A stretch of 64,000 bases of DNA. Origin: a virus. Lineage: Duplodnaviria > Heunggongvirae > Uroviricota > Caudoviricetes. Made by a program: the position numbers and the translations under genes. The stretch is taken from positions 152,286-216,285 of the IMG/VR virus record IMGVR_UViG_3300032167_000002; one strand, written 5' to 3'. Under the pieces are notes generated by a model, which was given only the letters and a program-made list of their open reading frames with translations, searched no databases and was not told the origin of the DNA. Of the stretch, positions 313 through 58,478 are shown in pieces (within the stretch, counting starts at the first letter, position 1; every line of letters starts with the position of its first letter).

Positions 313-344
313 TATATTATAACAAATTTAATTTAAAAAATCAA
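313..344 (-). promoter_or_regulatory. Stereotyped sigma-70 promoter for the leftmost partial gene
   Basis: + strand tatatattataacaaatttaatttaaaaaatcaa. Confidence 0.55.
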
Positions 345-838
345 CTAATTCTGTCATATTGCCAGAACTGATAAGTTAAGTCGTTATATGTTAGTAGCTG
401 TCCGCACGCAGCAGGCGCCCACTCTTCCGATTCATCTAGATTCGGAAAATAAGTATCAACATTATCGTGGTCTTTATAAATTTTTGTCACATAAACACGG
501 TCACAAACAGAAAGGAATTCTTGGTATATTGAGCCACCGCCAATAATAAACCATTCTTCATCATCATCAGACAAAGAAACTCGTACTTTAGCTTCATCCA
601 TTGGAATGCTAAAAGTCATGTTTCCAAGAGGACCTCTTGGCTATCTGGAGATAACAATATTTAGTCTATCTTTAAGTGGCTTTTGGGGTAATGAATCCCA
701 GGTTTTTCTTCCCATCACTACAACATGGCCAGTAGTGAGTGCCTTGAAATACTTCAAATCTTCTGGAATATGTTCCAATAGGTCTCCATTATAACCAATT
801 CCCCAATTATTATCAACAGCAACAATTGCAGAAATCAT
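341..838 (-). CDS. folA: Dihydrofolate reductase with a single in-frame TAG at 641-643
   Basis: Track ORFs 641..838 (MISAIVAVDNNWGIGYNGDLLEHIP...NIVISR) and 341..619 (...FIIGGGSIYQEFL...) are in the same frame (both codon tops congruent to 1 mod 3). They are separated only by TAG (+ strand cta at 641-643). The TAG aligns with Q in E. coli DHFR NIILSSQPG. The true stop is TGA at 341. Confidence 0.8.
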
Positions 839-2020: not shown

Positions 2021-3013
2021 TTATTTAATACTATATCCAAACTCTTTTGCTTTAAAATAATCTTGCCAGTAATCTTCTCTCTCGTCCAGTCTGGAACGGT
2101 CGCACTCTTCAACAACCTCGAAAGTGAAGTTCTCGGGTCCGGCCGCAATCATTGCAGGATATAATTTATTACGAGTGGGTGCGTCTGCACCTACACCTCG
2201 TTTAATATGCTATTTCCAGCGGTCTGCTAAATTGGCAGCCTAACCAACATAACATTTTCCAGAAGAGATTTCAGTAATTTTATAAATTCCAGTATGAACA
2301 CCAGAACCAATAACTCTACCAATCATATCTGTCGTTGGTTTTTCATAATAGCATTTCCAAATAACCTTATTTAAAGGTTCTTTATCACGCAAATAAGGTT
2401 CTACCTCACGCAGAAGCTCAATTTCGTGGAGGTCTGCGGCAGAAAGCTAAATGCGATAGTAGTCTTGTTGGTCTTTCATTTCTTCTGCTCTCTTGGCTGC
2501 GGCAACTGCGGCATCGTTTGTAGCACGCATAATAGCCACATTTCCTTCAAGAGCTTTATACTATTCCATCAAGCCAGCTACGGTTTCTTGATACTATACT
2601 TCAAAAGAAGCGACATTCTTTTGATATTTCTATGCTTCAAGCTCCAAAGAGCGAGCCAGATTTTCTTGAGCGACTTCCATTTTTGAACTATAAAATAAAT
2701 CTGCGGCTTCTTGAGCCTGCTTTTCCATAGCTGTAATACTACTATTTAATGTGTTAATCTATTCAATGGTTGAGTCCTTTTGGAGCAACAACCTACTATT
2801 TTCTTCTGTTAGTCGTTTAGTTTCAGCTTCAAGCCATATGCGGCCCTCTTCGGCTAAACGATTCTACTCCTAAATTCTTTCGTTCTCTTTGGCAGTCTGC
2901 GCATCCAACTCCAGCGCCGCGTGAATGCGGGGACGCAGAATGCGATATACAACATATCCCGTAATAAGGGACGACAAGATGAACGAAATTAGAAAAATAA
3001 GTAATTCCACCAT
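2021..3013 (-). CDS. Membrane-anchored coiled-coil protein with a C-terminal GIY-YIG nuclease domain; 9 in-frame TAG codons
   Basis: Manual translation of the minus strand gives one 331-codon frame from ATG (3013) to TAA (2021). N-terminal transmembrane helix MVELLIFLISFILSSLITGYVVY, then about 180 aa of coiled coil, then GIYKITEISSGKCYVG[TAG]AANLADRWK[TAG]HIKRG...YWQDYF. TAGs at + strand cta 2210-12, 2240-42, 2447-49, 2561-63, 2594-96, 2630-32, 2759-61, 2864-66, 2870-72. The first aligns with Q or S of the YIG(Q/S) motif. No standard-code ORF of 60 aa or more exists here. Confidence 0.7.
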
Positions 3014-3707: not shown

Positions 3708-5699
3708 TTACTCGATTCCAAAAGTCTGAATGAAGTCAGATTCTGACAAGATTGGAATCCCCAATGACTTGGCAGTCATGTTCTTAGAGGAAGTGGAATT
3801 CACATCATTGTTAATGAGGAAATTTGTGTTCTTAGAAACAGAACCAGTTACCTTTCCTCCAAGAGCCTCAATTCGTGCCTTGATTTCATCACGGTTCTTG
3901 AAATGAGTGAGTTTTCCAGTAATTACAAAAGTTTTTCCAGTTAAACTCTCGCCGACCGGGGCGGGAGCGACTTCAGGTGCATTAAAGTGAATATAATGGT
4001 CAGCAAGTAGTTTTGCTTCGGCATAATTAAAGCTAACTAAACTATTATGCATTTCACCACCGAAATTAGGAAGAGTGTAGAAAGCGAAACCACCTTCCGC
4101 TGCCTCGACAAACTTTTCCCAAGTTTCAAAGTGCTTTGCCAATTCTTTCGATGCCGTTGAGCCAATCAACGGAATACCGAGGGCCGCAATGAACTGATGT
4201 AGTTCACAATTTGCGCCAGTATTAATAGCGTTCAGAACCTTCTCGACGGATTTGGCTCCAAATCCAGGCTTCTGGACCCATTCACTTCTACGAATGGAAA
4301 GTTCAAAAATGTCAGTAAAATCATTGACCCAACCCCAATCAATCAGTTTCTCTAAAGTTGCCTTTGAGATACCCTTCATATCAAGACCTTTCTTACCGCA
4401 GAAGTGGTCCAGACGATTGATTAGTTTACCAGGACAAGTTGGAGAGACACAGGTCAGATTCATAGAGTCATTCAACTTACTATACTTGACCTCACCGCCG
4501 CACACAGGACAACAATTGGGGCGTTCAAACCAAGGATAATCATACTGAGGTAAATCCTCGGGTTCTTCCGCAGACGCAATCTGAGGAATAATCATATTAG
4601 CCTTAAAGACGTCCACCTTTTGGCCTTTATAACCCCAACCATGTAAAGTTTCATTTAGAATACTTACATTGTGTAAGCTAGCTCTTTCTACGGTCGAACC
4701 ATCTACGTCGATTGGTTCAAAGACAGCAACGGGAGTAAGGACACCGGTTCTACCCATCGTCCATTCAATATCCAACAAGCTAGTCTGGTAAGTTTCATCA
4801 TAGAATTTATATGCCAGAGCATTTTTGAAATGATGCGTTGTTTCTCCAAGAGAACGACCATAAGCACAATCATTAAACTTAATAACTACACCATCAATTG
4901 GATAACTATATCCTTGAGCCATTTGAGTCACTTGCTCAATAAACATATCCATTTCAACCTCAGTATCATCTGCGTAATAAGCAGGACCAGTCGCATATGG
5001 AACTATAGTAAATCCAAAAGGTACAAGATAATTAAGTTTTTGGCTAAGTTTGTACTCGGTACCATCATCAAACATCATTGGAGTGAGAACATCCCACGCA
5101 ACAAATGTAAGATTGCGGCTTGCACATTCTTTGGAGTCTAAAAGACGAATACTGCCTGCGGCGAAATTTCTAGGGTTCTTATATTCTGAACTGAATTTTT
5201 CAAAATCAGTATAGGTGCAAATGATTTCTCCATCAATAACCAATTCATCCATATAAGGAATTTTACTTGGAATTGAAGGAAGAACTCTTGCATTATGCAG
5301 GATATCTTCACCGACAAGACCATTTCCCCTAGTCTCCGCAGAAACTAATTCTCCGTTGCGGTAAGTAAGAGAACAAGTTAAACCGTCCATCTTACACATA
5401 GCCAAGAAGTCCTTTTTACCTACAAAAGCAGAAACTTCATCAACGGATTTAGTTTTTTCAAGAGATAACATCTTATGAGAATGTTCAACTTTTTTCAAAG
5501 CATTTACAACTTCATAAGAAATAGATTGAGTAGGAGAATTAGATAAAATCAAACCTGTTTCTTTTTCTAATTCTTGTAACTCAAAATATTTATTATCCCA
5601 TTCTTCGTCCGTAATTTTTGGATTACCTTCATCGTATGCTTTTGTACATTCGTTAAGGTATCTTACAAGAAACTTGATTTTATCATAGATACTATCCAT
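3708..5699 (-). CDS. ligA: NAD+-dependent DNA ligase
   Basis: 663 aa. KMDG adenylation motif (AMCKMDGLTCSLTYRNG), Zn-finger cysteines CCPVCGG...C, C-terminal BRCT (GKTFVITGKL). SD AAGGAG before the ATG. Confidence 0.9.
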   Translation of the reverse strand: MDSIYDKIKFLVRYLNECTKAYDEGNPKITDEEWDNKYFELQELEKETGLILSNSPTQSISYEVVNALKKVEHSHKMLSLEKTKSVDEVSAFVGKKDFLAMCKMDGLTCSLTYRNGELVSAETRGNGLVGEDILHNARVLPSIPSKIPYMDELVIDGEIICTYTDFEKFSSEYKNPRNFAAGSIRLLDSKECASRNLTFVAWDVLTPMMFDDGTEYKLSQKLNYLVPFGFTIVPYATGPAYYADDTEVEMDMFIEQVTQMAQGYSYPIDGVVIKFNDCAYGRSLGETTHHFKNALAYKFYDETYQTSLLDIEWTMGRTGVLTPVAVFEPIDVDGSTVERASLHNVSILNETLHGWGYKGQKVDVFKANMIIPQIASAEEPEDLPQYDYPWFERPNCCPVCGGEVKYSKLNDSMNLTCVSPTCPGKLINRLDHFCGKKGLDMKGISKATLEKLIDWGWVNDFTDIFELSIRRSEWVQKPGFGAKSVEKVLNAINTGANCELHQFIAALGIPLIGSTASKELAKHFETWEKFVEAAEGGFAFYTLPNFGGEMHNSLVSFNYAEAKLLADHYIHFNAPEVAPAPVGESLTGKTFVITGKLTHFKNRDEIKARIEALGGKVTGSVSKNTNFLINNDVNSTSSKNMTAKSLGIPILSESDFIQTFGIE

Positions 5700-46505: not shown

Positions 46506-47456
46506 TTAGCGGATACACTCATAACGAGGGGAGTCCAGCTTCTCAAACATCAAATCCAGACCAGTCTTGCCGGACATAATCTGCTCGAAGATGGAAGGAG
46601 ACATACCAGACACATAGGAAATGTTGCCAACTCCAATGTCCTCGGCATGGAAGCAACGGGTTGCCTTGTCAACAACCTCATAAGGATACAGGTCCTTGGC
46701 ATTAACCTTGGTAGTAGTATCCTTTGCGAAATCCGCATAAGTCTTAACCTCGGGATTGCGCTTCATACGCTCAATGTCATGACGAGCAAAGGCGTTCTTA
46801 TACTTTAGACCTGCCTTGGAAGGAATCTTGTCGAACTCGATTTCATCCCAACGACCCTCAGACATCAGACGCTCCAGGACGTTGATGCGGGCACGCAGAA
46901 CAGACAGAGTCTTACGATACTGCTTGGGAGTCATACCCATAAAGGCACGAACCTTTGCGGCAGTCTTACGAGTCTTAGCAGAGCTGGTGTTCTCGGAAGG
47001 CATCCACTTACCCAGCAGAGAGGGAGTCTTACACTGGACGTCCAGAGCCAGCTGGTGCTTAACGATGTTCAGAGCCTGGGTCTCCAGAGGAGTACCGATG
47101 AACACGAACAGGTCATCCCAGCGACCGAACTCAGGAACGTGAATCAGGTTGCGCTGCATAGCGTCGGTATTGTAGGAAGCCAGCCACTTGGTCGCAACAC
47201 GGAAGAAACGACGCTCACCCTGGCCACCACGCACGTCACGGATGTAGAACAGACACTTCAGCGCATAGGTAGGATCCTCGGCGAAGGCGTTCTTGAACAG
47301 CAGGATAACATCCTCGTCAGAACGAGTACGGTAGGCCGCACCCATGGCGAAGAGATCCAGCAGAGCATTCATAGTAGACTTGTGGGTAACTGCACCATTC
47401 TCAGTCAGAGTGTAGTTGGTAGCAGTCTTCATTCCATTCAGAAATGCATTACTCAT
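46506..47456 (-). CDS. Hypothetical protein (DUF2828/TROVE-like)
   Basis: 316 aa. The family assignment is from memory only. Confidence 0.35.
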   Translation of the reverse strand: MSNAFLNGMKTATNYTLTENGAVTHKSTMNALLDLFAMGAAYRTRSDEDVILLFKNAFAEDPTYALKCLFYIRDVRGGQGERRFFRVATKWLASYNTDAMQRNLIHVPEFGRWDDLFVFIGTPLETQALNIVKHQLALDVQCKTPSLLGKWMPSENTSSAKTRKTAAKVRAFMGMTPKQYRKTLSVLRARINVLERLMSEGRWDEIEFDKIPSKAGLKYKNAFARHDIERMKRNPEVKTYADFAKDTTTKVNAKDLYPYEVVDKATRCFHAEDIGVGNISYVSGMSPSIFEQIMSGKTGLDLMFEKLDSPRYECIR

Positions 47457-48835: not shown

Positions 48836-50059
48836 TTAAGACTTTTTATGTCGGATCAAGATTCTAAAATATTTAGTCTGCCCATCAACAGTAGGACCGT
48901 TCCAAGTTTTAGTTTTACCAGTCTTACTATCTTGATAAGTGGTAGGAGTACCACAGATTAAACCATGCTCATAATCTGGATGAGCATATCCATTGAAACC
49001 TCCAACCAGTTCAAACTGATCAGGATTATATTTATCAATAAAGGAAATAGGAACACCCATTTCTCCATCGTAATTCATTGGAATATCTACAACACGATCC
49101 ACATTAATCGCGTCATAATTATCGTATTTAGGATGAATGGCGGGATCATAAGTTTTAGTAAGGATCAATTCTTCCTCTCTCTTAGAGGTGGGTAGATTGG
49201 TAAACCAACCAATATTACCGAAAGATTTAATAGATCCATCGGGTTGGATAAACTTATGAACTGCATTGTAGCCAGGCCAAATTTCATTTCGCCAAATACG
49301 GGTAAAAATTTCCTTATAGGTATAAGCATTTTTACTGCCAATAATAAGGAACTGCTTGTTGTGAGTGAGAATTGTATCAATGAATTCTCTAAACATAGAG
49401 AAAGGAGGATTGGTGCAAACAATATCGCACTCTTCCAAAATAGCAATGCACTCAGGACTGCGGAAATCACCATTTCCAGTCAAATCCTCTTGCAAAGCAT
49501 CGCTATCATCAATGGCGCCGTCGCCAGTGGTATCAGCATCAATCCAAATCTTATATGCCTTGCCATTCTCATCATAATGAGTGGCAATTAGTTTCTTTAG
49601 ACCAAAAGCATCAAACCGGTTAACAAAGAAAGACCAGAATTCGCTCTTTTTCTCAGCTGGATCATCACAAGGTAGATATACAACCTTATTATAGAAATAC
49701 TTACGATATTTCATAACCTCAGCTTCGATATCTTCATAGCGAGTATAAAATTCATCATTTTTTACTCTTTTTGCGGTACGTAGATTGGAATTATCGCATC
49801 CTTTGGAATTCTCTTCTTCCTCAAGGATTTTCATCAAATCCAAGAAATCATCTACGACTTCATAGCGCACCGGAGAGCCTCCCAGTCGGTTGAGGTATCC
49901 ATGATTTACAACGCCAGTTAATGTGGCAGGAGCAATTTTTACTCCGCAGGCATCACTCAACTCTTTTGCAGAAAAAGAAGTGAGTAAACAGTGCTGTTTA
50001 ATGTGTGTTAGTGCAGACCGTCCATTTTCAGTAAGTCCCATAATTAAACATCCTTTCAA
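48836..50059 (-). CDS. N6-adenine methyltransferase-like protein (NPPF motif)
   Basis: VCTNPPFS catalytic motif IV. 407 aa. Adjacent to the DUF262-HNH gene. Confidence 0.55.
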   Translation of the reverse strand: MKGCLIMGLTENGRSALTHIKQHCLLTSFSAKELSDACGVKIAPATLTGVVNHGYLNRLGGSPVRYEVVDDFLDLMKILEEEENSKGCDNSNLRTAKRVKNDEFYTRYEDIEAEVMKYRKYFYNKVVYLPCDDPAEKKSEFWSFFVNRFDAFGLKKLIATHYDENGKAYKIWIDADTTGDGAIDDSDALQEDLTGNGDFRSPECIAILEECDIVCTNPPFSMFREFIDTILTHNKQFLIIGSKNAYTYKEIFTRIWRNEIWPGYNAVHKFIQPDGSIKSFGNIGWFTNLPTSKREEELILTKTYDPAIHPKYDNYDAINVDRVVDIPMNYDGEMGVPISFIDKYNPDQFELVGGFNGYAHPDYEHGLICGTPTTYQDSKTGKTKTWNGPTVDGQTKYFRILIRHKKS

Positions 50060-50093
50060 TTTTTATAGTATATTTATAACCTGCTAAGCAGAA

Positions 50094-50339
50094 TTATATA
50101 CGATTATTTACATATCGGTCATACTCAGCATACCATTTATAAAATAGTTTGCGAGCGCTCCACCAAGAGAGTCCATCATCCCACTCAATAGGATCGGACA
50201 CTTGGGAGCCATGCGTGTCGCAAGGCCATACTTCAACAACCCAACCACGATCTGATTTTATCATCAAAACACCGTACAACTTGGGGCCATCTTTGCCCCA
50301 TCCATAGGTCACATATTTGATTTTATAGCCTTTAAACAT
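50094..50339 (-). CDS. Hypothetical protein
   Basis: 81-aa track ORF. Confidence 0.3.
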   Translation of the reverse strand: MFKGYKIKYVTYGWGKDGPKLYGVLMIKSDRGWVVEVWPCDTHGSQVSDPIEWDDGLSWWSARKLFYKWYAEYDRYVNNRI

Positions 50340-50362
50340 ACATCATACCTCATTGTTAAATT

Positions 50363-50448
50363 TGGAGTCAGCGGTGAGATTCGAACTCACGCCATTGAAG
50401 GCACGCGGTTTTGCAGACCGGGGTCTTAAGCCACTTGACTACGCTGAC
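50363..50448 (-). tRNA. Atypical tRNA, anticodon GCA (Cys-like, U73) with a long variable arm
   Basis: Minus-strand GTCAGCG...CCGGT CTGCAAA ACCG...GTGAG TTCGAATC CTCAC CGCTGAC T CCA. 86 nt with a 14-nt variable region. Manual fold. Confidence 0.45.
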
Positions 50449-50450
50449 AT

Positions 50451-50917
50451 TTATTCTTGCCACTCTTCACATTCTATGCCATTAGAGCGGAAATAATTTT
50501 GAATTACAACTCGCTCAGAGCACGGATTATCAGGAGCCTCATGCACAATAAATACTGGAATTGGTTCACCCTCATATCCGACTACTGAACGGACAGCTTC
50601 GCATAAATTGCGTGTACGAGTCATAATATCATTGATTTCCAAAAGACTTAGCTGATGAGCATATGCTTTGAGGAAATTACATTGATCGGGATTCTTATCA
50701 GAACAACTTCCGCAATTAGATACTGCGGTCGCCACCTTACCGGGCGCGAAGTCGGGCGCCCGCAATCCATTGATAACACCATTCTTATCAATGAACCAAT
50801 GTCCTTGGTCTCGATTTTGATGATACCATTTGGGGTCCCATAACGCAGTAGAAATAGGAATCATATTCGGTTTGAAAAATCGTATCTTATAGAAATAAGA
50901 TGTATAAACTTTCATAT
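50451..50917 (-). CDS. Hypothetical protein (start trimmed to MKVYTSYFYK, SD GGAGGA)
   Basis: The track ORF 50451..50984 runs into tRNA-Met, so an internal SD-linked ATG is used. Confidence 0.35.
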
Positions 50918-50929
50918 GCGTCCTCCTCT

Positions 50930-51006
50930 TGGTGGGCCCCCTGGGTCTCGAACCCAGATAGTCCCGGTTATGAGCCGGGCGCACTAGCCAATTGTACTAA
51001 AGGCCC
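50930..51006 (-). tRNA. tRNA-Met (CAT), elongator-type
   Basis: GGGCCTT TA GTAC AATTGGCTA GTGC G CCCGG CTCATAA CCGGG ... GGGGCCC A CCA. Confidence 0.75.
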
Positions 51007-51229
51007 GTGTGAATTGCCTCTTGGCGTGCTGTATTGCGTGTATTACACTAATCCTTCTTCCAAGAGGCTCATATTACCCAGTCACTAGTAAACTGTACCT
51101 AATATGATTGCAGTTTTTTGACCGTTCAAGTCTTAGTCTCGGCACTAAGGTTAACCCCTCTTTATTCGTATACTGCCAACCTTGGGAAGAGGCTCCACCA
51201 GCACTTCCGGACAAGCCCTGGCTTCATCG

Positions 51230-51260
51230 CCACCGCATTCCGCGGGATAATGGTGGATAC
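51230..51260 (-). ncRNA. tRNA 3' minihelix fragment (T-arm plus 3' acceptor plus CCA) with no matching 5' half
   Basis: CGAGG TTCGAGT CCTCG AGTATCC A CCA. No GGATACT partner upstream. Confidence 0.4.
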
Positions 51261-51424
51261 TCGAGGACTCGAACCTCGCTTTTTTCATGTAGCCTTCTGG
51301 AGAGACCCCATCCACGCTACACCGGTTTCGCGCACGCAAGGCGACAGTGGGCGTTTATCTCCACATCGCAGTTTTTACTTCCGTACTACTTACATTACTT
51401 ATCCTCCCTGTGAGGAGCTACCCT

Positions 51425-51500
51425 GGTGCCCGTTGGGGGATTCGAACCCTCGACACCCTGATTAAGAGTCAGGTGCTCTGACCAGCTGAGCTAAACGGGC
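51425..51500 (-). tRNA. tRNA-Lys (CTT)
   Basis: GCCCGTT TA GCTC AGCTGGTC AGAGC A CCTGA CTCTTAA TCAGG ... AACGGGC A CCA. Confidence 0.75.
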
Positions 51501-51672
51501 GTGGTATATTATCGTAGATAATTGTAATGTTATGCTCTTGGCAATATCCTTTCCAACAACGATAACATCTTTGCTCTCTTTCTATTGGCTCATAGCAAGT
51601 TGTTGCCACAGTGCATAAACATATTGTAGGGCATCTATGATTATCAATTTCCTTGTCAATATTGATTTCCAT
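51469..51672 (-). CDS. Small Cys-rich protein (3' end uncertain; the track ORF runs into tRNA-Lys)
   Basis: CPTICLC...CYRCWKGYC. Confidence 0.3.
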   Translation of the reverse strand: MEINIDKEIDNHRCPTICLCTVATTCYEPIEREQRCYRCWKGYCQEHNITIIYDNIPRPFSSAGQST

Positions 51673-51702
51673 AGGATTTTCCCCTTTCTTTATCTTACAT
51701 AT

Positions 51703-51733
51703 ATATTATAACATATTTTTTTATAAAAATCAA
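51703..51733 (-). promoter_or_regulatory. Stereotyped sigma-70 promoter (-35 TTGATT, 17-nt spacer, extended -10 TGATATAAT) reading leftward
   Basis: + strand tatatattataacatatttttttataaaaatcaa, the reverse complement of TTGATTTTTATAAAAAAATATGTTATAATATATA. Confidence 0.6.
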
Positions 51734-51950
51734 ATAAAATAAAAAACAGCGAATAAGGCTAATCTTTGGACTTAGGTCGGATCTGATTTCCAGATATCCG
51801 ATTGCCACTTAGTTCCAACTGTAAAACCTTATTCGCACCCCATAGGGCGGTCTCGAGGAATTTCTCCCAGTGCACTAAGGCGAGACCGGTCGAGCAATAA
51901 TGACTTGGTGCGCCGCCTGGGATTCGAACCCAGGACACCCGCCTTTTTCA

Positions 51951-52419
51951 GTCATTCGATGAAAGTATCTTCAAGTTTGAAATCTTTTGCGAAATTGATA
52001 TTCTTAGTCTGACCATTCTTTGTAGGCTTTAAACGCAATCTACAAGAACGACTACCAGCTTTATCAACTGGAACAAGATAGCACTGATGATTATGCATTG
52101 TAGCAAAATAATCAATGTCATCCGCAGAATAAGATTGATATACTGTCTTTTGAGTATTTGTATGAGAGGATTGAGTCTTAAACTCAATATAATCTTCATC
52201 TTCACTCAATGATGATGTCTTTACTTGAATACGATATAACTGATGGTTGATATCAACGATAAAGTCATAGCGACTATCAGATACCAAAGGCTTACACACT
52301 TGATACCCCAATGTCAAAAACGATTCGGCAACTTGGAGTTCAGTAATTTCACCTTGGAAATGAGTGTTTAACACTTAATTCACCTCCTGGGAAAATACTT
52401 TCTTCTCCTGTGTGAAAAG
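51951..52419 (-). mobile_element. Intron-like insertion in the tRNA anticodon loop carrying a homing-endonuclease-type ORF
   Basis: Lies between the two exon halves. The ORF stop TGA sits 8 nt before the 3' exon. Reminiscent of tRNA group I introns with PD-(D/E)XK endonucleases such as I-Ssp6803I. Confidence 0.5.
51952..52374 (-). CDS. PD-(D/E)XK-type putative homing endonuclease inside the split tRNA
   Basis: GTG start with SD AGGAGGTG. SRYDFIVDINHQLYRIQVK core. Paralogous to 56793..57200. Confidence 0.55.
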   Translation of the reverse strand: MLNTHFQGEITELQVAESFLTLGYQVCKPLVSDSRYDFIVDINHQLYRIQVKTSSLSEDEDYIEFKTQSSHTNTQKTVYQSYSADDIDYFATMHNHQCYLVPVDKAGSRSCRLRLKPTKNGQTKNINFAKDFKLEDTFIE

Positions 52420-52469
52420 GGCGGTGCTCTGAAACCTGCTGAGCTAGCGGCGCATATGAAGGGAAAAGT

Positions 52470-52496
52470 GGGATGGGCCTTTTGTTGACCCATCCC
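52470..52496 (-). terminator. Hairpin GGGATGGGCCTTTTGTTGACCCATCCC upstream of the split tRNA
   Basis: Stem-loop seen in the sequence. Confidence 0.4.
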
Positions 52497-52943
52497 GCAA
52501 GACATAAGATGTTTCTAAAAAGATCATTCTCTATGTTTGTTTGTCAAATATTGAGTATTATCATTTTGAAAATTTTGCTGTATATGTCTTGTATAAATAC
52601 TCTCCTTTGGTGGTAACTTTCATTTATGCGATGATGAGTGTCGAGAGCCTCATCACATCTACTACTGATTATCACATTCCCGGAGAGCCGAAAGTTTTTT
52701 TAGTAAAACCATTCTTCTTTCTATCATTTAAAAACGCGACTGTTAAGTCATCATAGAAGCTACTTGAAGTAGCGATCTGTACTATTAAGTACAAGCTGGT
52801 TTGCTGTATGGCTCTCAGTGTTTCTATAAATAATTACTTTTCCGTCGAGGCCACCTGTTAATAACGGAATTTGCGAGCTAGCCCTCCTCGAGCTTCTATC
52901 CGCAATAGACGGACCAGTATCAACACCTGGCGAATTATTTATA

Positions 52944-53018
52944 TGGAGCGGGTAAGGGGAATCGAACCCCTCTATCCTGCTTGGAAGGCAGGCGCACTAG
53001 CCGATGTACTACACCCGC
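52944..53018 (-). tRNA. tRNA-Gly (TCC)
   Basis: GCGGGTG TA GTAC ATCGGCTA GTGC GCCTGC CTTCCAA GCAGG ... CACCCGC T CCA. Confidence 0.75.
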
Positions 53019-53105
53019 AAAGAATGGGGCACTCCGAGGAATGCCCCCGAGAAGATAGGAACTTTAAAGAAAGGGGAGAAGATTTTTTCTTTATTTCCTG
53101 TACTA

Positions 53106-53136
53106 TTATTATACCAAAAAATTTTTGAAAAATCAA
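53106..53136 (-). promoter_or_regulatory. Stereotyped sigma-70 promoter reading toward tRNA-Gly
   Basis: + strand tattattataccaaaaaatttttgaaaaatcaa. Confidence 0.55.
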
Positions 53137-53137
53137 C

Positions 53138-53434
53138 TCATTTTCTAATGAACCAACGACGATATTCTTGATATGCTTCTTCGCGATCGGGAAATTCGGA
53201 ATATCTCCAATCCCACTCGTACCATCTTTTGACGAGACTCTCCCAATATTGCTCGAAAGAAGTGCCGACTGTTTCATAGTCGCAAATATCATATTGGCAA
53301 AACACCTTTTTGTATGTATTACCTTTAGGATGCTCGTCGATGGGAAGACGGCGCACTTTGCGATTAGCATATCTTTTAAAGAATTTGTCTTTTGTATCAC
53401 CCGAGCGAGGGGTGTGTTTGAATGATCTACTCAT
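53138..53434 (-). CDS. Hypothetical basic protein
   Basis: 98-aa track ORF, co-transcribed with tRNA-Leu. Confidence 0.35.
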   Translation of the reverse strand: MSRSFKHTPRSGDTKDKFFKRYANRKVRRLPIDEHPKGNTYKKVFCQYDICDYETVGTSFEQYWESLVKRWYEWDWRYSEFPDREEAYQEYRRWFIRK

Positions 53435-53511
53435 TACTTCTAACCTCCTTTACGGTAGTTAGAAGACACTCAACCTCCACATTGGAAACACATCCTTTCA
53501 ATAAAGATAAG

Positions 53512-53598
53512 TGGTGCCGGCGACCGGACTCGAACCGGTACGGGCACAGGCCCAAGGGATTTTAAGTCCCTGGTGTCTACCTATTCCACCACGCCGGC
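53512..53598 (-). tRNA. tRNA-Leu (TAA), type II
   Basis: GCCGGCG TG GTGGAATAGGTAGACAC CAGGGA CTTAAAA TCCCT plus a long variable arm ... CGCCGGC A CCA. Confidence 0.75.
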
Positions 53599-53698
53599 AG
53601 ATTTACAAGGCTCATTTTTTTTCTCTCAAGCATTACCAATTTTATGTCGGTTAGAAAAAGTGAAATTTGCTGTATGAGCCTTTCTTTATCTTCTATAT

Positions 53699-53729
53699 AT
53701 ATTATATCATATTTTTTTATAAAAATCAA
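53699..53729 (-). promoter_or_regulatory. Stereotyped sigma-70 promoter immediately downstream of the suppressor tRNAs
   Basis: + strand tatatattatatcatatttttttataaaaatcaa. Confidence 0.6.
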
Positions 53730-53741
53730 CTTTCCGCACAA

Positions 53742-53816
53742 TGGCGGGGGGCCTGGGATTCGAACCCAGCCACAACGGTTTTAGAGACCGCCGCGCTACC
53801 GCTACGCTAACCCCCA
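53742..53816 (-). tRNA. Amber suppressor tRNA, anticodon CTA, tRNA-Gln-like (U1.C72 open pair, G2-C71, G3-C70, G10, G73)
   Basis: TGGGGGT TA GCGT AGCGGTA GCGC G GCGGT CTCTAAA ACCGT TGTGG CTGGG TTCGAAT CCCAG GCCCCCC G CCA. + strand tag at 53782-84 inside tttagag. The acceptor end resembles tRNA-Gln(CTG) at 59382..59457. Confidence 0.8.
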
Positions 53817-53891
53817 TGGCACCGGCGCTCTGACTCGAACAGAGATATGCGGGGTTAGAGCCCGCCGTCCTAGCCATTGAACGACACCGGA
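53817..53891 (-). tRNA. Second suppressor tRNA, anticodon CTA, with Trp-like D and T arms (G73, U1.U72)
   Basis: TCCGGTG TC GTTC AATGGCTA GGAC G GCGGG CTCTAAC CCCGC ATAT CTCTG TTCGAGT CAGAG CGCCGGT G CCA. + strand tag at 53856-58. Abuts the first suppressor with no spacer. Confidence 0.7.
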
Positions 53892-53920
53892 ATATTCCAC
53901 AAGGCACAATTTGATATTTA

Positions 53921-53950
53921 ACGGCGCTCTACCATCTGAGCTACGACCCC
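53921..53950 (-). ncRNA. tRNA 5'-half fragment (acceptor plus D-arm) with no anticodon or T arms
   Basis: GGGGTCG TA GCTC AGATGGT AGAGC G CCGTT..., then unrelated sequence up to the second suppressor tRNA. Confidence 0.4.
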
Positions 53951-53954
53951 TATA

Positions 53955-53995
53955 TGGCAGGGGCGGTAGGATTCGAACCTACGACTTCCGGCTTG
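53955..53995 (-). ncRNA. tRNA 3'-half fragment (variable region, T-arm, acceptor, CCA) directly after the leader motif
   Basis: ...AAGCCGGAAGTC GTAGG TTCGAAT CCTAC CGCCCCT G CCA. Not complementary to the adjacent 5' fragment. Confidence 0.4.
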
Positions 53996-54040
53996 GCAGG
54001 CTTAATCAATAAATTGCTGTTTATGCCTTTATCTTATATT

Positions 54041-54071
54041 ATATTATATCAAAAATTTTTTATAAAGTCAA
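54041..54071 (-). promoter_or_regulatory. Stereotyped promoter variant (-35 TTGACT)
   Basis: + strand atattatatcaaaaattttttataaagtcaa. Confidence 0.5.
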
Positions 54072-54334
54072 TTATTGGGTTGAGGCAAATCTTCCCAGAT
54101 AGTAGATTCTTCAACGCAATCACACTCAATAATTGCGTCATCATTTACCGCCTTAGAATACCAGAGTTTGTCGCTACCAAGAATATAAGTTCTTTTTTCT
54201 TGAATAACATATACTTCACTACCCATAGCGAGTTCTGCTACCTTTAAAAGTTTTACATCATCTGCAGTGTCTGCTACAAATTGAACATAATGAGATTGGT
54301 AGCGATTATTCTAAAAAACTTTAATACTAGCCAT
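54068..54334 (-). CDS. Small hypothetical protein with an in-frame TAG at 54311-13
   Basis: SD AAAGGAAAA before the ATG. MASIKVF[TAG]NNRYQSHYVQFVADTADDVKLLKVAELAMGSEVYVIQEK...EDLPQPNN. TGA at 54068. Confidence 0.45.
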
Positions 54335-54529
54335 ATTTTCTCATTTTCCTTTCTATAAAAATTTTTTCATTTCGCTAAATTTTTCTTTTATTGCGACCTT
54401 TACCTTCAGCAATATAGCGTTTCAAAAATTTACACCCCGAACAACCATTTCGATTTTTACAACACCAACAACCATCTGTGTCGGGCCAAAAGTAACGAGG
54501 AGGCTGCGGCCGCATCTTGCGGTGCCCCA

Positions 54530-54859
54530 TTATGCGTAACGATTGCGCTTGTGTTTAGGCGCAAAATAACCGGCTTCGCGCAAATCTTCATCCATAGCAA
54601 CTACCTTCCGCAAATCGGAGGCACGATAAAGAATTGCTTGATTATAGTTTCCGCTTCTGTGTCTCTTGGAACCCTTGTTGCGAGTTTTGGTATTGCAATC
54701 GGGACAAGAACAATGGATTTTGTTTTTTGAATACTGATGGAGATTATTATACCAAGGAACAGGTTTTCCATCATTATAACTGGTTTTGTGCTGAATGTCA
54801 ATTCTACGCTTTCTCTTGGCTTTACGAATTGATACATCTCTATTATAAGCACCAATCAA
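54530..54859 (-). CDS. Hypothetical basic protein
   Basis: 109-aa track ORF. Confidence 0.3.
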   Translation of the reverse strand: MIGAYNRDVSIRKAKRKRRIDIQHKTSYNDGKPVPWYNNLHQYSKNKIHCSCPDCNTKTRNKGSKRHRSGNYNQAILYRASDLRKVVAMDEDLREAGYFAPKHKRNRYA

Positions 54860-54966
54860 ATCACATCATCCTCTCTATTTAGTTTAGGCTCAGTCGGTTT
54901 GGGCGGGTAGCACCAAACATCTCCTCGACGTCGACGAAGGTATTCTTCTTCTTGAACTACAACTGA

Positions 54967-55055
54967 TGGCGGACAGGGAGGGATTCGAACCCCCGGAGCA
55001 TTACGCCCGCCGGTTTTCAAGACCGGTGTAATAAGCCAGACTCTACCACCTGTCC
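54967..55055 (-). tRNA. tRNA-Ser (TGA), type II
   Basis: GGACAGG TG GTAGAGTCTGGCTTATTAC A CCGGT CTTGAAA ACCGG plus a long variable arm ... CCTGTCC G CCA. Confidence 0.75.
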
Positions 55056-55092
55056 ATCTCTATTGAAGGGGCATAGCGCCCCTTCTATCGAA

Positions 55093-55455
55093 TTACATCT
55101 TTGCCAGAATCTTCTGGAGATCACTCTGAGCTTCACAAACCTCAGCACAGGCATCAGCATTGTATTGAGCCATATCATCAACATACTTCTGGGCCATCTT
55201 CAGCTGCTCATGAGCCTTCTTCAGCAAGCGAGCGGAACGAGCCTGACGCTTGCGGGCGATCTTCTCAGCGCAGCGGGCAATAGCCAACTTCTTGCCCTTC
55301 TCTTCATCGTAGGTATCATTCTCGTGAACGATTGCATTTCCCTTTACAACCTTACCGGCGTAAGTGGAATAAGCGATGATTTCAGTGGTCTTGTAGTCCT
55401 TATGCTGATGCACAACAATATTGTACTTTTCAACTGGATATCTCATTTTCTTCAC
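55093..55455 (-). CDS. Hypothetical protein
   Basis: 120-aa track ORF. Confidence 0.3.
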   Translation of the reverse strand: MKKMRYPVEKYNIVVHQHKDYKTTEIIAYSTYAGKVVKGNAIVHENDTYDEEKGKKLAIARCAEKIARKRQARSARLLKKAHEQLKMAQKYVDDMAQYNADACAEVCEAQSDLQKILAKM

Positions 55456-55531
55456 CTTTTACTCTTTTTTATTTGTGGGAGTGTCAAAAAGGGTAACTCG
55501 TAAGTTTGCTCCCAGAACGAGTTTTCACCAT

Positions 55532-55606
55532 TGGAGCCCCGACCCGGACTTGAACCGAGAACGGAGGATTACAAATCCACTGTTTTACCGATTGAACTAT
55601 CGGGGC
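55532..55606 (-). tRNA. tRNA-Thr (TGT)
   Basis: GCCCCGA TA GTTC AATCGGTA AAAC A GTGGA TTTGTAA TCCTC ... TCGGGGC T CCA, with one anticodon-stem mismatch. Confidence 0.65.
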
Positions 55607-55735
55607 ATAAACAAGACCCTTTTCATTTATTACGCGGATTCGAACCGCTAAATTTTCATTTGAAGTAAAAATTATTATCCAAGAAAAAAGATTGCAGGAA
55701 GGGTCTTTTTTTATTTATTTTCATTTCTTATGTAT

Positions 55736-55766
55736 ATATTATACAAAAAAATTTTATAAAAATCAA
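55736..55766 (-). promoter_or_regulatory. Stereotyped sigma-70 promoter
   Basis: + strand tatatattatacaaaaaaattttataaaaatcaa. Confidence 0.55.
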
Positions 55767-56698
55767 GTGCGGACGGGTCGCCCAAATCCGCTGACAAGCA
55801 CACTATTGCGCGCTTTACGGACGGGCGGCCGCAAGAAAAAACCCATATTGAATTTCAAACTCTACCTACTCCATATGCGCTAACGGTCTTTCCGTCGCCA
55901 TATGCTACCACCTAACGCTCATACTTTGTCGGGTTTGTATCCGTGTTGTGACAAAATTGAGGTATTTTTACTTTCCATCGGTATTGTTTTCGATCCAATA
56001 TGGATTTTCCACTCAAAATCAATCTTTCGCTTTTCATCGCCTTACCTCAGTATTGGGCTATATTACCGAGCGCTACTCAATCAAGAATGAGATTTTTATA
56101 CTTTTATGTAATCATATAGCAGTTGCGAGTCTGTATCATTATCGCTACCCAATCTCACCTACTTATTTCGCAGTAGGGGCGCCTGGACTTAATCTTCATA
56201 TTCGGAACCCGACTCAGTTTATGCTCCAGGGACCTTACAGCAGAGGGATAATTTGCTTACAACATAGACCGTAGACTATGAAGAAGAAATTATCGTAATA
56301 TCAATTCATACAACTACTGCAATCTGATTATTCAACCAGACCGGTCAAAAGAGAAATCAGCAAACTCTTACCTTATCTAACGCAATAAGGAGCGTTGAAT
56401 TAGATGTCTGATACGTATCAGCACGGGCCGGGATGTATCGTTTCACCACAGTCACCAGGCGAAAGGAAAAAACCTCACCTAATCCAAATGCCACCAAGAA
56501 CCTTCAGCCATAGGAGCAGTTCTCACGTCATTACCCTAACGAGGATTTGGGAACTCATTTCTGAGCTTTGCATCGTACCCCGCCTATATTCGCAGCGAAT
56601 GGCATTCTATTTGATTGTAGAAGTTTTTGGAAGAGAACGATAACTCTAAGCGTTTCATTTTGACTTGTACGCATAACTATGTCTAGGCATGGAGCCTA

Positions 56699-56784
56699 TG
56701 GTGGGCCAGGTAGGACTTGAACCTACAATGTCATACGAACCCGATTTACAGTCGGGGGTGGTACCAATTACACTCTACTGACCC
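56699..56784 (-). tRNA. tRNA-Tyr (GTA), type II
   Basis: GGGTCAG ... CCCGA CTGTAAA TCGGG TTCGTATGACATT GTAGG TTCAAGT CCTAC CTGGCCC A CCA. Confidence 0.7.
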
Positions 56785-56792
56785 ATATGGTA

Positions 56793-57200
56793 TTACAAAG
56801 ACACCATATATTGATAAGTTTGGAAACCTTGTCCATTTGCAGATTTTTGAGTACGCAAAGAAATTTGTTTACTTACTCCATAATCTCGCAAATCTTGCAC
56901 TGGAATAACATACATATGCATTTCGCCATCTAAGCAGAACAAATAATCAACAGGATGATTTAGTACAGAATCATAAACACTACCTTTTGTGCCACCCGCA
57001 CTCTTCATAGAAACTACATTATCAGCACTGCCAGTTGCTTTACATTGAACGGTTTTGAACTCACCGTCTTTTTCAATAACTAAATCATACCATTGAGTAT
57101 CATTTAGAGGCACATTTACTGTATATCCATTGGCTCCAAAATAAGCGATTGCTATCGCCATACCAGCGCGACCCTTATCACGATTAGTTTCAAATAACAT
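56793..57200 (-). CDS. PD-(D/E)XK-type putative homing endonuclease, paralog of the tRNA-intron ORF
   Basis: ...GANGYTVNVPLNDTQWYDLVIEKDGEFKTVQCK... parallels ...TLGYQVCKPLVSDSRYDFIVDINHQLYRIQVK... in 51952..52374. Abuts tRNA-Tyr. Confidence 0.5.
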   Translation of the reverse strand: MLFETNRDKGRAGMAIAIAYFGANGYTVNVPLNDTQWYDLVIEKDGEFKTVQCKATGSADNVVSMKSAGGTKGSVYDSVLNHPVDYLFCLDGEMHMYVIPVQDLRDYGVSKQISLRTQKSANGQGFQTYQYMVSL

Positions 57201-57534
57201 AATAAAAACCTCTTTTCTTTTAGTTTCTACTATACTTCAAAACCAAATCAAATAAATTATCCAACGCCGGCCACGGTGTCCGCCGAAATATATAATGCCT
57301 TGTCAAAGTATATGTCTAACCTCAGCTTTGACTACCTACCGGTCTGCGCTCGTCCCGGGTGGAACCCAGATCGCTTAGACACTTCCCGACGCATCGTGAA
57401 AACGGGTCCGGTGCAGGCACCGGTCCTTGGAGGCTCAATACGTCACGCGAGGACTTTCGCTATAGCCTTGTTCAACAAAAAAGTTATTTATACGCAGTAG
57501 CGGCTAACTCTACTACAACAATAACCTTGGGCCG

Positions 57535-57593
57535 TGGTGAGGGACCTTGGACTTGAACCAAGAAGCCAATAAGGCGCCGGATTTACTGTCCGA
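57535..57593 (-). ncRNA. Partial Tyr-like tRNA (anticodon arm with GTA, long variable arm, T-arm, 3' acceptor, CCA) lacking a pairing 5' half
   Basis: TCGGA CAGTAAA TCCGG CGCC TTATTGGC TT CTTGG TTCAAGT CCAAG GTCCCTC A CCA. No GAGGGAC 5' strand within 600 nt. Confidence 0.4.
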
Positions 57594-58412
57594 TTTGAAT
57601 TGCTGTTAGCGGCTTTAGACCAAGACACTATTCGTTTCCGGTCCGGTGCGTCTACCAATTCCGCCAGTCCACTCATATTGAGAACTTTGAAAAGTTTTGC
57701 TGTCCTTCGACATACTCTCTATAACCTTCACCTATATTCGATCACTAGGGAGACAAGTCTGAGCTCAAGGGAGCGACCCTTAAACTTCTTGCCCCAGCTC
57801 CTACTGGAGCCAAGTCCTACACAGGGTTGTTTACCTGTAACTTTCACCCGCCATTCAGAATTATTTGATAATTTTTGCTATTACCCAAATACACTAAACA
57901 GCAATTTCTTTCTTCTCGTCATTGCGATAGGGCTACTCGTACCCCGACCTTACCTTATAGCCCGATTACTCGGACATCAACGCAGACTCTCTTATTGGTA
58001 TACTATGGTTTGAAACAGTCACCAGCTAATCCCTAACATAGCTTATTCCCCACAGGGGCGTCTATTGCGAGAGCGATAAGACGGTATCTTTAGATGCGAT
58101 TATCTTTGCACTCCTCTCCATCCAGGCCCCTCCGTTCGGAGGGCGGCCCGCACACATCACTGTATGCAGATCTACCTATTACTGGCTATCGTCAGTAAAT
58201 TGCTTTTCGGACTCCTGGCGCCCACGGGCAGGATGAGGATCTCGGCACGATGGTATTCGTTCTTCACCGAGGTGCAAAACTTTTCAAGGTTCAAACTGAT
58301 ATTAGTCGAAATCGCAACCACCAGGCTTACTCAGCGGAGGGTTATCAGTTATCGGTTGCTTCAAGGCAGGTTTAATCGTTTTCTAGAATGGAGCGTCAAG
58401 AAATGGATTATG

Positions 58413-58427
58413 ATTGCTGTGTCTGCC
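58413..58427 (-). repeat. Conserved transcript-leader motif, minus-strand GGCAGACACAGCAAT; one of at least 8 copies in the tRNA region
   Basis: + strand ttgctgt[a/g]t[a/g/c]tg[a/c]gcc also at 52571-87, 53665-80, 54011-27, 60228-43, 61137-54, 61680-96 and 62382-97. Usually 25-35 nt downstream of a promoter -10. Confidence 0.5.
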
Positions 58428-58445
58428 TTTCTTTATCTTACATAT

Positions 58446-58476
58446 ATATTATATCATATTTTTTTTATAAAATCAA
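58446..58476 (-). promoter_or_regulatory. Stereotyped sigma-70 promoter feeding the long noncoding stretch 58430-57240
   Basis: + strand tatatattatatcatattttttttataaaatcaa. Confidence 0.55.
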
Positions 58477-58478
58477 GT

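Follow-up and report, generated by a model that had tools for sequence, protein, structure and literature searches.

Tandem CUA-anticodon tRNA genes and in-frame TAG codons in a large, tRNA-rich phage

The locus described here raises the question whether two abutting transfer RNA (tRNA) genes with a CUA anticodon enable a phage to read the amber triplet TAG as a sense codon and, if so, which amino acid is inserted there. The two genes, named SupA and SupB in this study, are located in a 64,000-nucleotide (nt) stretch of the IMG/VR virus record IMGVR_UViG_3300032167_000002 (positions 152,286 to 216,285 of that record), and this whole stretch is referred to as the window. Our analysis has shown that TAG is read as a sense codon in this phage, and SupA and SupB are very probably functional UAG-decoding tRNAs. 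The assignment of TAG to glutamine (Gln; genetic code 15) is well supported by the sequence comparisons, on a small sample.

53817-53891, minus strand: SupA, amber-suppressor tRNA, found by ARAGORN and Rfam and by orthologues with compensatory changes in the related contigs L107-L116.
53742-53816, minus strand: SupB, amber-suppressor tRNA, found by ARAGORN and Rfam and by CUA relatives with compensatory acceptor changes.

Both genes were called by ARAGORN, a suppressor-aware tRNA finder, as minus-strand tRNAs with the anticodon cta; the label 'Pyl' given to them is merely the name which this program uses for any CUA tRNA. The Rfam tRNA covariance model scored 53742-53816 at 50.1 bits and 53817-53891 at 48.7 bits, against a gathering score of 29, and both tRNAs span the full model. 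The loops CUCUAAA of SupB and CUCUAAC of SupA are in the anticodon-loop register of the model, and thus CUA occupies positions 34-36 without a register shift. A first-pass annotation had proposed two abutting CUA tRNAs at this place and had named a shifted loop register or a pseudogene score as evidence to the contrary; ARAGORN and the Rfam model agree on the pair, with full-length alignment and both scores above the gathering score. The order given in that annotation is reversed on the transcribed strand, where SupA (53891-53817) leads and SupB (53816-53742) follows. No spacer is present between the genes, the first base of SupB being placed directly after the CCA of SupA, and CCA is encoded in both.

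SupB shows a U1.C72 mismatch, G2-C71, G3-C70, G10, G73 and a 5-nt variable loop, and the Gln-type acceptor attributed to it earlier is thus present in all its elements. SupA shows a U1.U72 mismatch, C2-G71, C3-G70, G10-C25, G73 and a 4-nt variable loop. Both sense tRNA-Gln genes of the window have the same 5' acceptor strand as SupB (TGGGGGT). This identity had been reported correctly, but the tRNA-Gln(CUG) gene had been placed at 59382-59457 and its position has been revised as given below.

59392-59467, minus strand: sense tRNA-Gln(CUG), with the UGGGGGU acceptor strand and G73 as in SupB, but with a paired U1-A72.
60056-60131, minus strand: sense tRNA-Gln(UUG), with the UGGGGGU acceptor strand, G73, a paired U1-A72 and a 4-nt variable loop.

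The fold has also been examined in an alignment of ten suppressors, in which 94% of the cells are paired, 12 of the 21 pairs are changed on both sides and all four stems covary. None of the 500 shuffles reached the observed value, and sliding the partners by 1-3 columns left only 39-56% paired. Position 1:72 is a pyrimidine-pyrimidine mismatch in all ten aligned suppressors. The C2-G71/C3-G70 pairs of SupA represent a double compensatory flip of the G-C pairs of its orthologues, and every T-stem change of SupA with respect to these orthologues is paired. Moreover, SupA is identical or different by one D-loop base in independent assemblies.

The genes which would depend on such tRNAs were searched among the open reading frames (ORFs) bounded by TAA or TGA only, with the in-frame TAGs listed for each ORF. 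At least four genes of the window were found to hold 13 in-frame TAGs, of which nine are in a GIY-YIG gene, two in an HNH gene and one each in DHFR and PhoH genes.

2021-3013, minus strand: GIY-YIG client, 330 codons with nine in-frame TAGs and a TAA stop; Pfam GIY-YIG, E = 3e-9.
59474-59878, minus strand: HNH endonuclease client with two in-frame TAGs, located between the two sense tRNA-Gln genes.
341-838, minus strand: DHFR client with one in-frame TAG, at codon 66.
15337-16587, minus strand: PIN/PhoH-like ATPase client with one in-frame TAG; the frame runs on for 46 codons to TAA.

The GIY-YIG client encodes a membrane-anchored coiled-coil protein with the nuclease domain at its C-terminal end. 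It has no TAA or TGA ahead of its stop and fills a gap which is otherwise without a standard-code ORF of at least 90 amino acids (aa). TAG makes up 10% of the off-frame stop triplets in the window, and hence nine TAGs with no TAA or TGA in 330 non-coding codons would be expected with a probability of about 1e-9. All nine TAGs are kept in orthologues at 92-97% nucleotide identity, which carry 9-11 of them. In case of DHFR, a full-length alignment to solved DHFRs crosses the TAG, and the alignment of the PhoH client to PDB 3b85 goes 40 residues past the TAG. The HNH client belongs to the phrog_2255 HNH endonucleases (E = 9.5e-36, residues 2-126, both TAGs covered) and gave no Pfam match. These four genes, with homology running across their TAGs, bear out the earlier proposal that in-frame TAGs of this phage need suppressor decoding. 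Two further regions, 16869-17297 and 19490-20203, are possible read-through genes but unproven.

The use of stop codons is in line with TAG being sense. Among 85 candidate ORFs, the stop is TAA in 54, TGA in 25 and TAG in six; of these six, three belong to the read-through genes (DHFR, PhoH and the N-terminal part of HNH), one ORF overlaps with a tRNA gene and the other two are ambiguous, so that no confident gene of the window requires TAG as stop. The six-frame ORF totals under reassignment of TAG, TGA or TAA, which are a crude measure, did not single out TAG, whereas the listing of in-frame TAGs for each ORF did. It was also observed that TAG is concentrated in the nuclease genes of homing-endonuclease type (9 of 330 codons in GIY-YIG and 2 of 134 in HNH).

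Several comparisons indicate which amino acid is encoded by TAG. In the alignment to PDB 3b85, the TAG of the PhoH client falls on the conserved Gln of the GD-TQ-D motif, and the TAG of the DHFR client is CAG in the related contig L009 and CAA in L010. In total, five of the seven TAG-to-sense exchanges among orthologues are to CAR (CAA or CAG). Position 258 of the GIY-YIG client ('YVG-Q') is Q in two of three annotated standard-code phage homologues. The residues aligned with the DHFR TAG in PDB entries are A, N, Q and S, which is not decisive for Gln.

With respect to charging, U35, a weak or unpaired 1:72, G73 and G10-C25 from the recognition set of the E. coli glutaminyl-tRNA synthetase (GlnRS) are present in both tRNAs. 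The G2-C71 and G3-C70 pairs of this set are found in SupB; in SupA they are C2-G71 and C3-G70, and in its orthologues G-C. G36 and U38 are absent from both tRNAs, position 36 being A in both and position 38 being A in SupB and C in SupA. A36 is inevitable with a CUA anticodon, and supE-type suppressors tolerate it. Gln identity in E. coli has been assigned to U35, G36, the 1-72 and 3-70 pairs, G10-C25 and the discriminator base; among amber derivatives, those of tRNA-Trp and tRNA-Ser are either glutaminylated or switched to Gln, and those of tRNA-Asn insert Gln once the 1-72 pair is weakened (PMC9976931). The insertion of Gln by both SupA and SupB appears moderately probable. No synthetase or release factor gene was found among the ORFs scanned in the window.

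Some observations weigh against this interpretation. The 30 large genes of the 64-kb window (10,847 codons, of which 321 are CAR codons) hold no TAG at all, and TAG is therefore a rare sense codon in the window; of the 19 Gln-type codons in the GIY-YIG gene, nine are TAG. Two of the seven TAG-to-sense exchanges are to TGG and TTG. The second GIY-YIG motif position with a TAG (268) is variable, the residues facing it in the three annotated phage homologues being R, N and R. The Q majorities at the nine GIY-YIG TAG columns among 120 database homologues are partly circular, because close homologues carry TAG in their DNA and are translated with TAG as Q; these counts were replaced by the PDB alignments, the codon-level comparison and the standard-code phage homologues described above. 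Further, the host of the phage may lack GlnRS, and the charging of SupA with Gln is less certain due to its C2-G71/C3-G70 pairs, which are not the G-C pairs required by E. coli GlnRS.

The related strain L010 has TAG where the window has TGG (Trp) at 2836 (GIY-YIG codon 60) and TTG (Leu) at 4775 (NAD ligase codon 309), and not a Gln codon. TGG and TTG are each one base away from TAG, and this sample is too small for interpretation.

The acceptor stem of SupA is of importance for two of the other explanations. The suppressors may insert different amino acids, with Gln carried by SupB and glutamate (by a route of glutamyl-tRNA synthetase (GluRS) type), Asn, Trp or Lys carried by SupA, which would make UAG ambiguous. 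SupA is without G2-C71 and G3-C70, though its orthologues (the form A' of L107 and L113, and that of L112) have both, and it possesses U11-A24 and a 4-nt variable loop, which are features of the tRNAs recognised by E. coli GluRS. One TGG-to-TAG and one TTG-to-TAG substitution among the orthologues fit with this explanation, as does E being the second commonest residue at several GIY-YIG TAG columns; however, the E counts are weak evidence, since the Q-to-E exchange is common in any protein. Published isotype predictions for 180 phage suppressors comprise 69% Gln, 19% Trp and 10% Ile (PMC10879173). On the other hand, U35, G73, G10-C25 and the mismatch at 1:72 are retained in SupA. In E. coli, Gln is inserted by amber suppressors whose 1-72 pair is weakened, the tRNA-Asn derivative included (PMC9976931), and the majority of the TAG-to-sense exchanges are to CAR. 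We regard such a division between the two tRNAs as unlikely. It is even less probable that only one tRNA is active, with SupA as a duplicate which is decaying or regulatory and, for example, provides no more than an RNase P site or a 3' end for processing. A single suppressor is found at the same place in some relatives (L002, L113 and L116), and the acceptor stem of SupA deviates from the family norm. However, its cloverleaf is perfect, its changes are compensatory (GG/CC to CC/GG in the acceptor, paired changes in the T stem) and it is nearly invariant across the independent assemblies, while the single-suppressor relatives L112, L113, L114 and L116 keep the SupA type.

The name 'tRNA-Pyl' which ARAGORN prints for the anticodon cta might suggest that both genes decode UAG as pyrrolysine. 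In tRNA-Pyl the anticodon stem is 6 bp long, the variable loop has 3 nt, the short D loop lacks GG and TΨC is absent. In both tRNAs of the pair, by contrast, the anticodon stem has the canonical 5 bp, G18-G19 and a T54-T55-C56 loop are present, and the variable loops measure 4 nt (SupA) and 5 nt (SupB). Moreover, no pylS or pylBCD-like gene was present among the window ORFs scanned against Pfam, and the TAG columns match Gln. Pyrrolysine tRNA identity was rejected in view of these canonical features in both genes, and there is hardly any chance that it is correct. The suppressors could also be aimed mainly at the host, either for read-through of host TAG stops or as a decoy or replacement against tRNA-targeting defences. 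The array of at least 24 tRNAs together with a Thg1-like enzyme and an RNA ligase would fit a theme of tRNA repair or anti-defence, but the conserved in-frame TAGs of the phage's own genes, which cannot be expressed without suppression, provide a sufficient and direct role, and no sense tRNA with a CUA anticodon exists to be replaced or mimicked. A role directed mainly at the host is thus considered very improbable.

A further proposal, compatible with Gln insertion, is that the pair is not simply redundant but forms a two-architecture set in which UAG is decoded via GlnRS or via a non-discriminating GluRS with GatCAB. Of these routes, E. coli has GlnRS, whereas Bacillus subtilis lacks GlnRS and relies on GluRS with GatCAB. 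SupA is of one type (U8-C9, U11-A24 and a 4-nt variable loop, as in tRNA-Gln(UUG) and tRNA-Glu), and SupB is of another (C11-G24 and a 5-nt variable loop, as in tRNA-Gln(CUG)). This proposal is a tentative one, and we consider it rather doubtful.

The pair is predicted from the surrounding elements to be transcribed in a short unit of its own.

54043-54071, minus strand: sigma-70-like promoter of the Sup unit (TTGACT, 17-nt spacer, TG-extended TATAAT; 11 of 12 consensus matches).
53892-54036 (about 145 nt), minus strand: structured leader ahead of SupA, with the motif GGCAUAAACAGCAA and its 3' partner GUGCCUUG.
53701-53729, minus strand: promoter of the next unit, which consists of a leader and tRNA-Leu(UAA) (TTGATT, 17-nt spacer, TG-TATAAT).

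The earlier statement that the pair ends a unit just before a promoter is supported, as a sigma-70-like repeat is present directly after the pair and another lies upstream at 54071-54043. The promoter of the next unit, which is of the same repeat family as that of the Sup unit, begins 13 nt past the 3' end of SupB, within the D3 repeat copy at 53679-53741, which is 83% identical to the reference copy. No terminator-like site was found between the promoters at 54071-54043 and 53729-53701. In the proposed mechanism, a host-type sigma-70-like promoter would drive one short unit comprising the leader, SupA and SupB. Cleavage by RNase P at the 5' end of SupB would free SupA with its encoded CCA in the same step; the genes abut and CCA is encoded, so a single cut would finish the 3' end of SupA. 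The mature tRNAs would then be charged by a host enzyme, U35, the unpaired 1:72, G73 and G10-C25 being the features which in E. coli direct amber suppressors to GlnRS. The charged suppressors would compete with release factor 1 at UAG and give full-length GIY-YIG, HNH, DHFR and PhoH proteins.

The Sup leader contains, between GGCAUAAACAGCAA and GUGCCUUG, a permuted tRNA-like module made up of a T arm, a closed acceptor stem and a D arm. This module resembles the tRNA-like domain of YrlA (Y RNA-like) RNA, with a sub-threshold Rfam match at 53921-53990 (33.5 bits against 69). The single-sequence fold of the leader was not significant (z = -1.6).

Similar elements are repeated in the tRNA array (50000-64000, minus strand), which is split into many short units, each headed by a conserved promoter repeat of about 55-63 nt. 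The repeat consists of TTGAtT, a 17-nt spacer and a TG-extended TATAAT, followed by AGATAAAG, and its copies are located at 51683-51745, 53084-53136, 53679-53741, 54019-54071, 55716-55778, 58426-58488, 59032-59094, 60953-61015 and 61721-61783. The leader motif GGCnnnnACAGCAA has nine minus-strand copies, all in the tRNA region and just before a tRNA or ROOL RNA, with 5' ends at 52588, 53680, 54027, 57613, 58427, 60244, 61154, 61696 and 62397. On both strands together 11 matches were found against 3.1 expected, and no shuffle reached 11. Seven of the nine copies have an exact GGCnn complement (context nnGCCTTG) 60-130 nt downstream which covaries with the motif, and the copy of the Sup unit pairs with its partner through G.U wobble only. 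The GGCnnnnACAGCAA element looks like a repeated structured RNA which is not recognised by Rfam. Several of the leader elements enclose a permuted tRNA-like module, and a second sub-threshold YrlA match lies at 60135-60246 (26.4 bits against 69). The YrlA model can be fooled, since a third match at 62420-62538 is a mere junction of two tandem tRNAs. Fragments resembling a tRNA T arm and acceptor were further observed at 51249-51278, 51904-51940, 57533-57562, 61088-61117 and 62842-62878.

The origin of the two tRNAs was found to be different from that suggested earlier. The first-pass annotation had suggested that SupB is a duplicate of a resident tRNA-Gln in which the anticodon had mutated. 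With the 7-nt acceptor strand set aside, the identity of SupB to the Gln tRNAs of the window is about 64%, which is no higher than to those for His, Val and Met. SupB-type CUA tRNAs are present elsewhere at 96% (L004) and 85% identity (L002, an IMG/VR viral contig), in unrelated viral contigs, and at 81% in phage phAss-1. A recent copy of a resident tRNA-Gln was therefore rejected, and SupB is a member of a circulating suppressor lineage. SupA had been described as Trp-like in its D and T arms, of the su7 type. Alignment to phage Gln and Trp tRNAs gives instead a D arm and variable loop of Gln(UUG) type. The identity of SupA is 0.67 to the Trp tRNAs of related arrays and 0.68 to those for Gln. 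In U8-C9, in the D stem GUUC/GGAC and in the 4-nt variable loop it agrees with the phage tRNA-Gln(UUG) of L082 and L053, unlike the U8-A9 and 5-nt variable loops in Trp tRNAs of related arrays. The D-arm and variable-loop features are shared with its own orthologues, which carry a full Gln-type acceptor (UGGGGUG/CGCCCCC, G73). A Trp origin was thus rejected as improbable on these sequence features.

The slot between tRNA-Ser(UGA) and tRNA-Leu(UAA) holds a tandem CUA pair in seven related metagenomic contigs (L106-L111 and L115). In L106, L110 and L115 the pair is the same as in the window, and L106 (JGI 3300024269 Ga0257076_10000374) is 100% identical to the window over the stretch compared (53401-55100). 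The contigs L107, L108, L109 and L111 encode an identical GmrSD protein, yet their tRNA region is only about 80% identical to that of the window, and their slot is filled by another abutting pair, in which the 75-nt SupA orthologue A' (acceptor UGGGGUG/CGCCCCC, U1.C72, G73) precedes a CUA tRNA of 97 nt, which has a long extra arm and the acceptor features U1-A72, G2, G3 and G73. The 97-nt tRNA is found at 3035-3131 of L107 (5236-5332 of L108, L109 and L111), and its extra arm is a hairpin, CACGG-CUCUGAC-CCGUG, which resembles a second anticodon arm of Gln(CUG) type. This replacement of the second member in related strains, with the 97-nt form and its Gln(CUG)-like hairpin, suggests ongoing selection on the slot. 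Lone A-type suppressors were observed in L112, L113, L114 and L116. A 20-mer from the SupA anticodon arm was absent from IMG/VR, and a 15-mer from it matched unrelated CUA tRNAs only. Relatives located through the EcoRI-like methylase carry tRNA arrays, with no suppressor within reach. A scan of genome contigs gave a lone Ser-type CUA tRNA in a Gudongella metagenome-assembled genome, which is uninformative on the host.

Reassignment of TAG to Gln by means of suppressor tRNAs is already documented for phages, tandem pairs (phAss-1) included, and the window adds one lineage to these. It has been established for crAss-like phages, Lak phages and several gut clades, and in code-15 clades compatibility with the standard code is typical of the suppressor genes and of many replication genes (10.1101/2021.08.26.457843). 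One report describes the recoding in phages as validated by proteomics (PMC9523058). Like the code-15 phages, the window has a canonical CUA tRNA in a gut phage, in-frame TAGs at Gln positions of homologues, avoidance of TAG as stop, no dedicated synthetase nearby and many replication genes compatible with the standard code. Unlike them, it belongs to another lineage of tRNA-rich large phages, with the huge-phage records LR756500 and LR756501 as its nearest database relatives at about 40% protein identity, and its TAGs are concentrated in two endonuclease genes with single sites in DHFR and PhoH.

The closest parallel, phAss-1 (Phassvirus; OQ749652; PMC10607447), has two adjacent tRNA-Sup-CTA genes beside a tRNA-Leu. 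Its 72-nt suppressor is the 81% relative of SupB and has the same U1.C72, G2, G3 and G73 acceptor, and the phAss-1 suppressors have a homologue of the TAG-rich GIY-YIG gene at a distance of about 400 bp. However, phAss-1 has another genome backbone, of 136 kb, and its partner suppressor differs from SupA in a long variable arm and an A1-U72 acceptor; phAss-1 also carries three suppressors, with TAG in 28% of its ORFs. The E. coli suppressors supE (tRNA-Gln CUA), su7 (tRNA-Trp CUA) and the tRNA-Asn and tRNA-fMet derivatives with a weakened 1-72 pair share U35, the weak or unpaired 1:72, G73 and G10 with the pair, a combination known to lead to charging by GlnRS (PMC9976931). These are laboratory mutants of cellular tRNAs, whereas the pair consists of natural, conserved phage genes, with the 1:72 mismatch constant in the suppressor alignment, and SupA differs from the E. 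coli Gln suppressors by the absence of G2-C71 and G3-C70. HDV-like theta ribozymes located by phage suppressor tRNAs (PMC10879173) are another instance of gut-phage suppressors with dedicated 3'-end formation. In the window, by contrast, the 3' end of SupA is set by the abutting SupB and that of SupB is followed by a promoter; no ribozyme family was found at the Rfam gathering thresholds, nor in a scan of 53650-54120 at E <= 10.

Taken as a whole, the window comes from a large phage rich in tRNA genes, which occurs in gut and other metagenomes. Every sizeable gene is on the minus strand, and ARAGORN identified 24 tRNA genes on this strand between 50.3 and 63.7 kb. The genes encode GyrA, GyrB, an NAD-dependent ligase, a multidomain tail-lysozyme protein, NAMPT and other NAD enzymes, an RNA ligase, a sigma factor, a Thg1-like enzyme, a GmrSD-like nuclease, an EcoRI-like methylase, a vault-like protein and homing endonucleases; no structural gene module was found within the window. 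Within the phage collection, the vault-like protein matched only three records, which are named 'uncultured phage' and are 462-735 kb in size, with about 40% identity. More than 20 metagenomic contigs (JGI, ENA) encode proteins identical to those of the window; most of these contigs are 50-200 kb long and a few are longer.

Other elements were observed in and around the tRNA array. A full-length ROOL RNA (57682-58295, minus strand, 327.8 bits) and a drum RNA (62889-62999, minus strand, 78.1 bits) are located among the phage tRNA genes, and a partial match to the OLE model (model positions 437-594, 53.4 bits) is present at 51749-51836 on the minus strand; the Rfam scan of 1-49500 gave nothing at threshold. 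Two PD-(D/E)XK_5 ORFs lie inside the array (51952-52374 and 56793-57200). A second tRNA-Gly(UCC) was called by ARAGORN at 61602-61675 (Rfam tRNA score 52.7 bits); it is without an encoded CCA, in which the other 23 tRNAs end, and has an atypical A/U-rich acceptor, TTAGAAG...CTTCTTTAGT. The Thg1-like (3'-5' nucleotide addition) enzyme (38624-39514; Pfam E = 2e-28), the RNA ligase (33993-35411) and a DUF2828 protein (46506-47456) are further encoded in the window. The DUF2828 protein has 316 aa in the window against 519 aa, with a vWA-like DUF7788 domain, in L106, and the 519-aa form gave no PDB sequence match. The presence of these three proteins beside tRNAs with a mismatched first pair makes a theme of tRNA or RNA repair, or of ribonucleoproteins, possible.

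This study has brought out some details of the pair which were not found described in the literature compared, namely that 1:72 is invariably unpaired throughout this suppressor family, that the 2:71 and 3:70 pairs are flipped in SupA, that the second member is replaced at the level of strains and that TAG is concentrated in endonuclease genes. The annotation of this phage must treat TAG as sense, as the standard code splits or truncates at least four genes of the window. The pair also offers a clean natural test of suppressor charging, because the unpaired 1:72 and G73 are shared by its members while 2:71, 3:70 and the body architecture differ, and the strain-level swap of one member supplies natural variants for comparison. 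If the two-architecture set is true, recoding would be robust across hosts, and the fixed pyrimidine-pyrimidine mismatch at 1:72 would be a shared, phage-specific identity switch.

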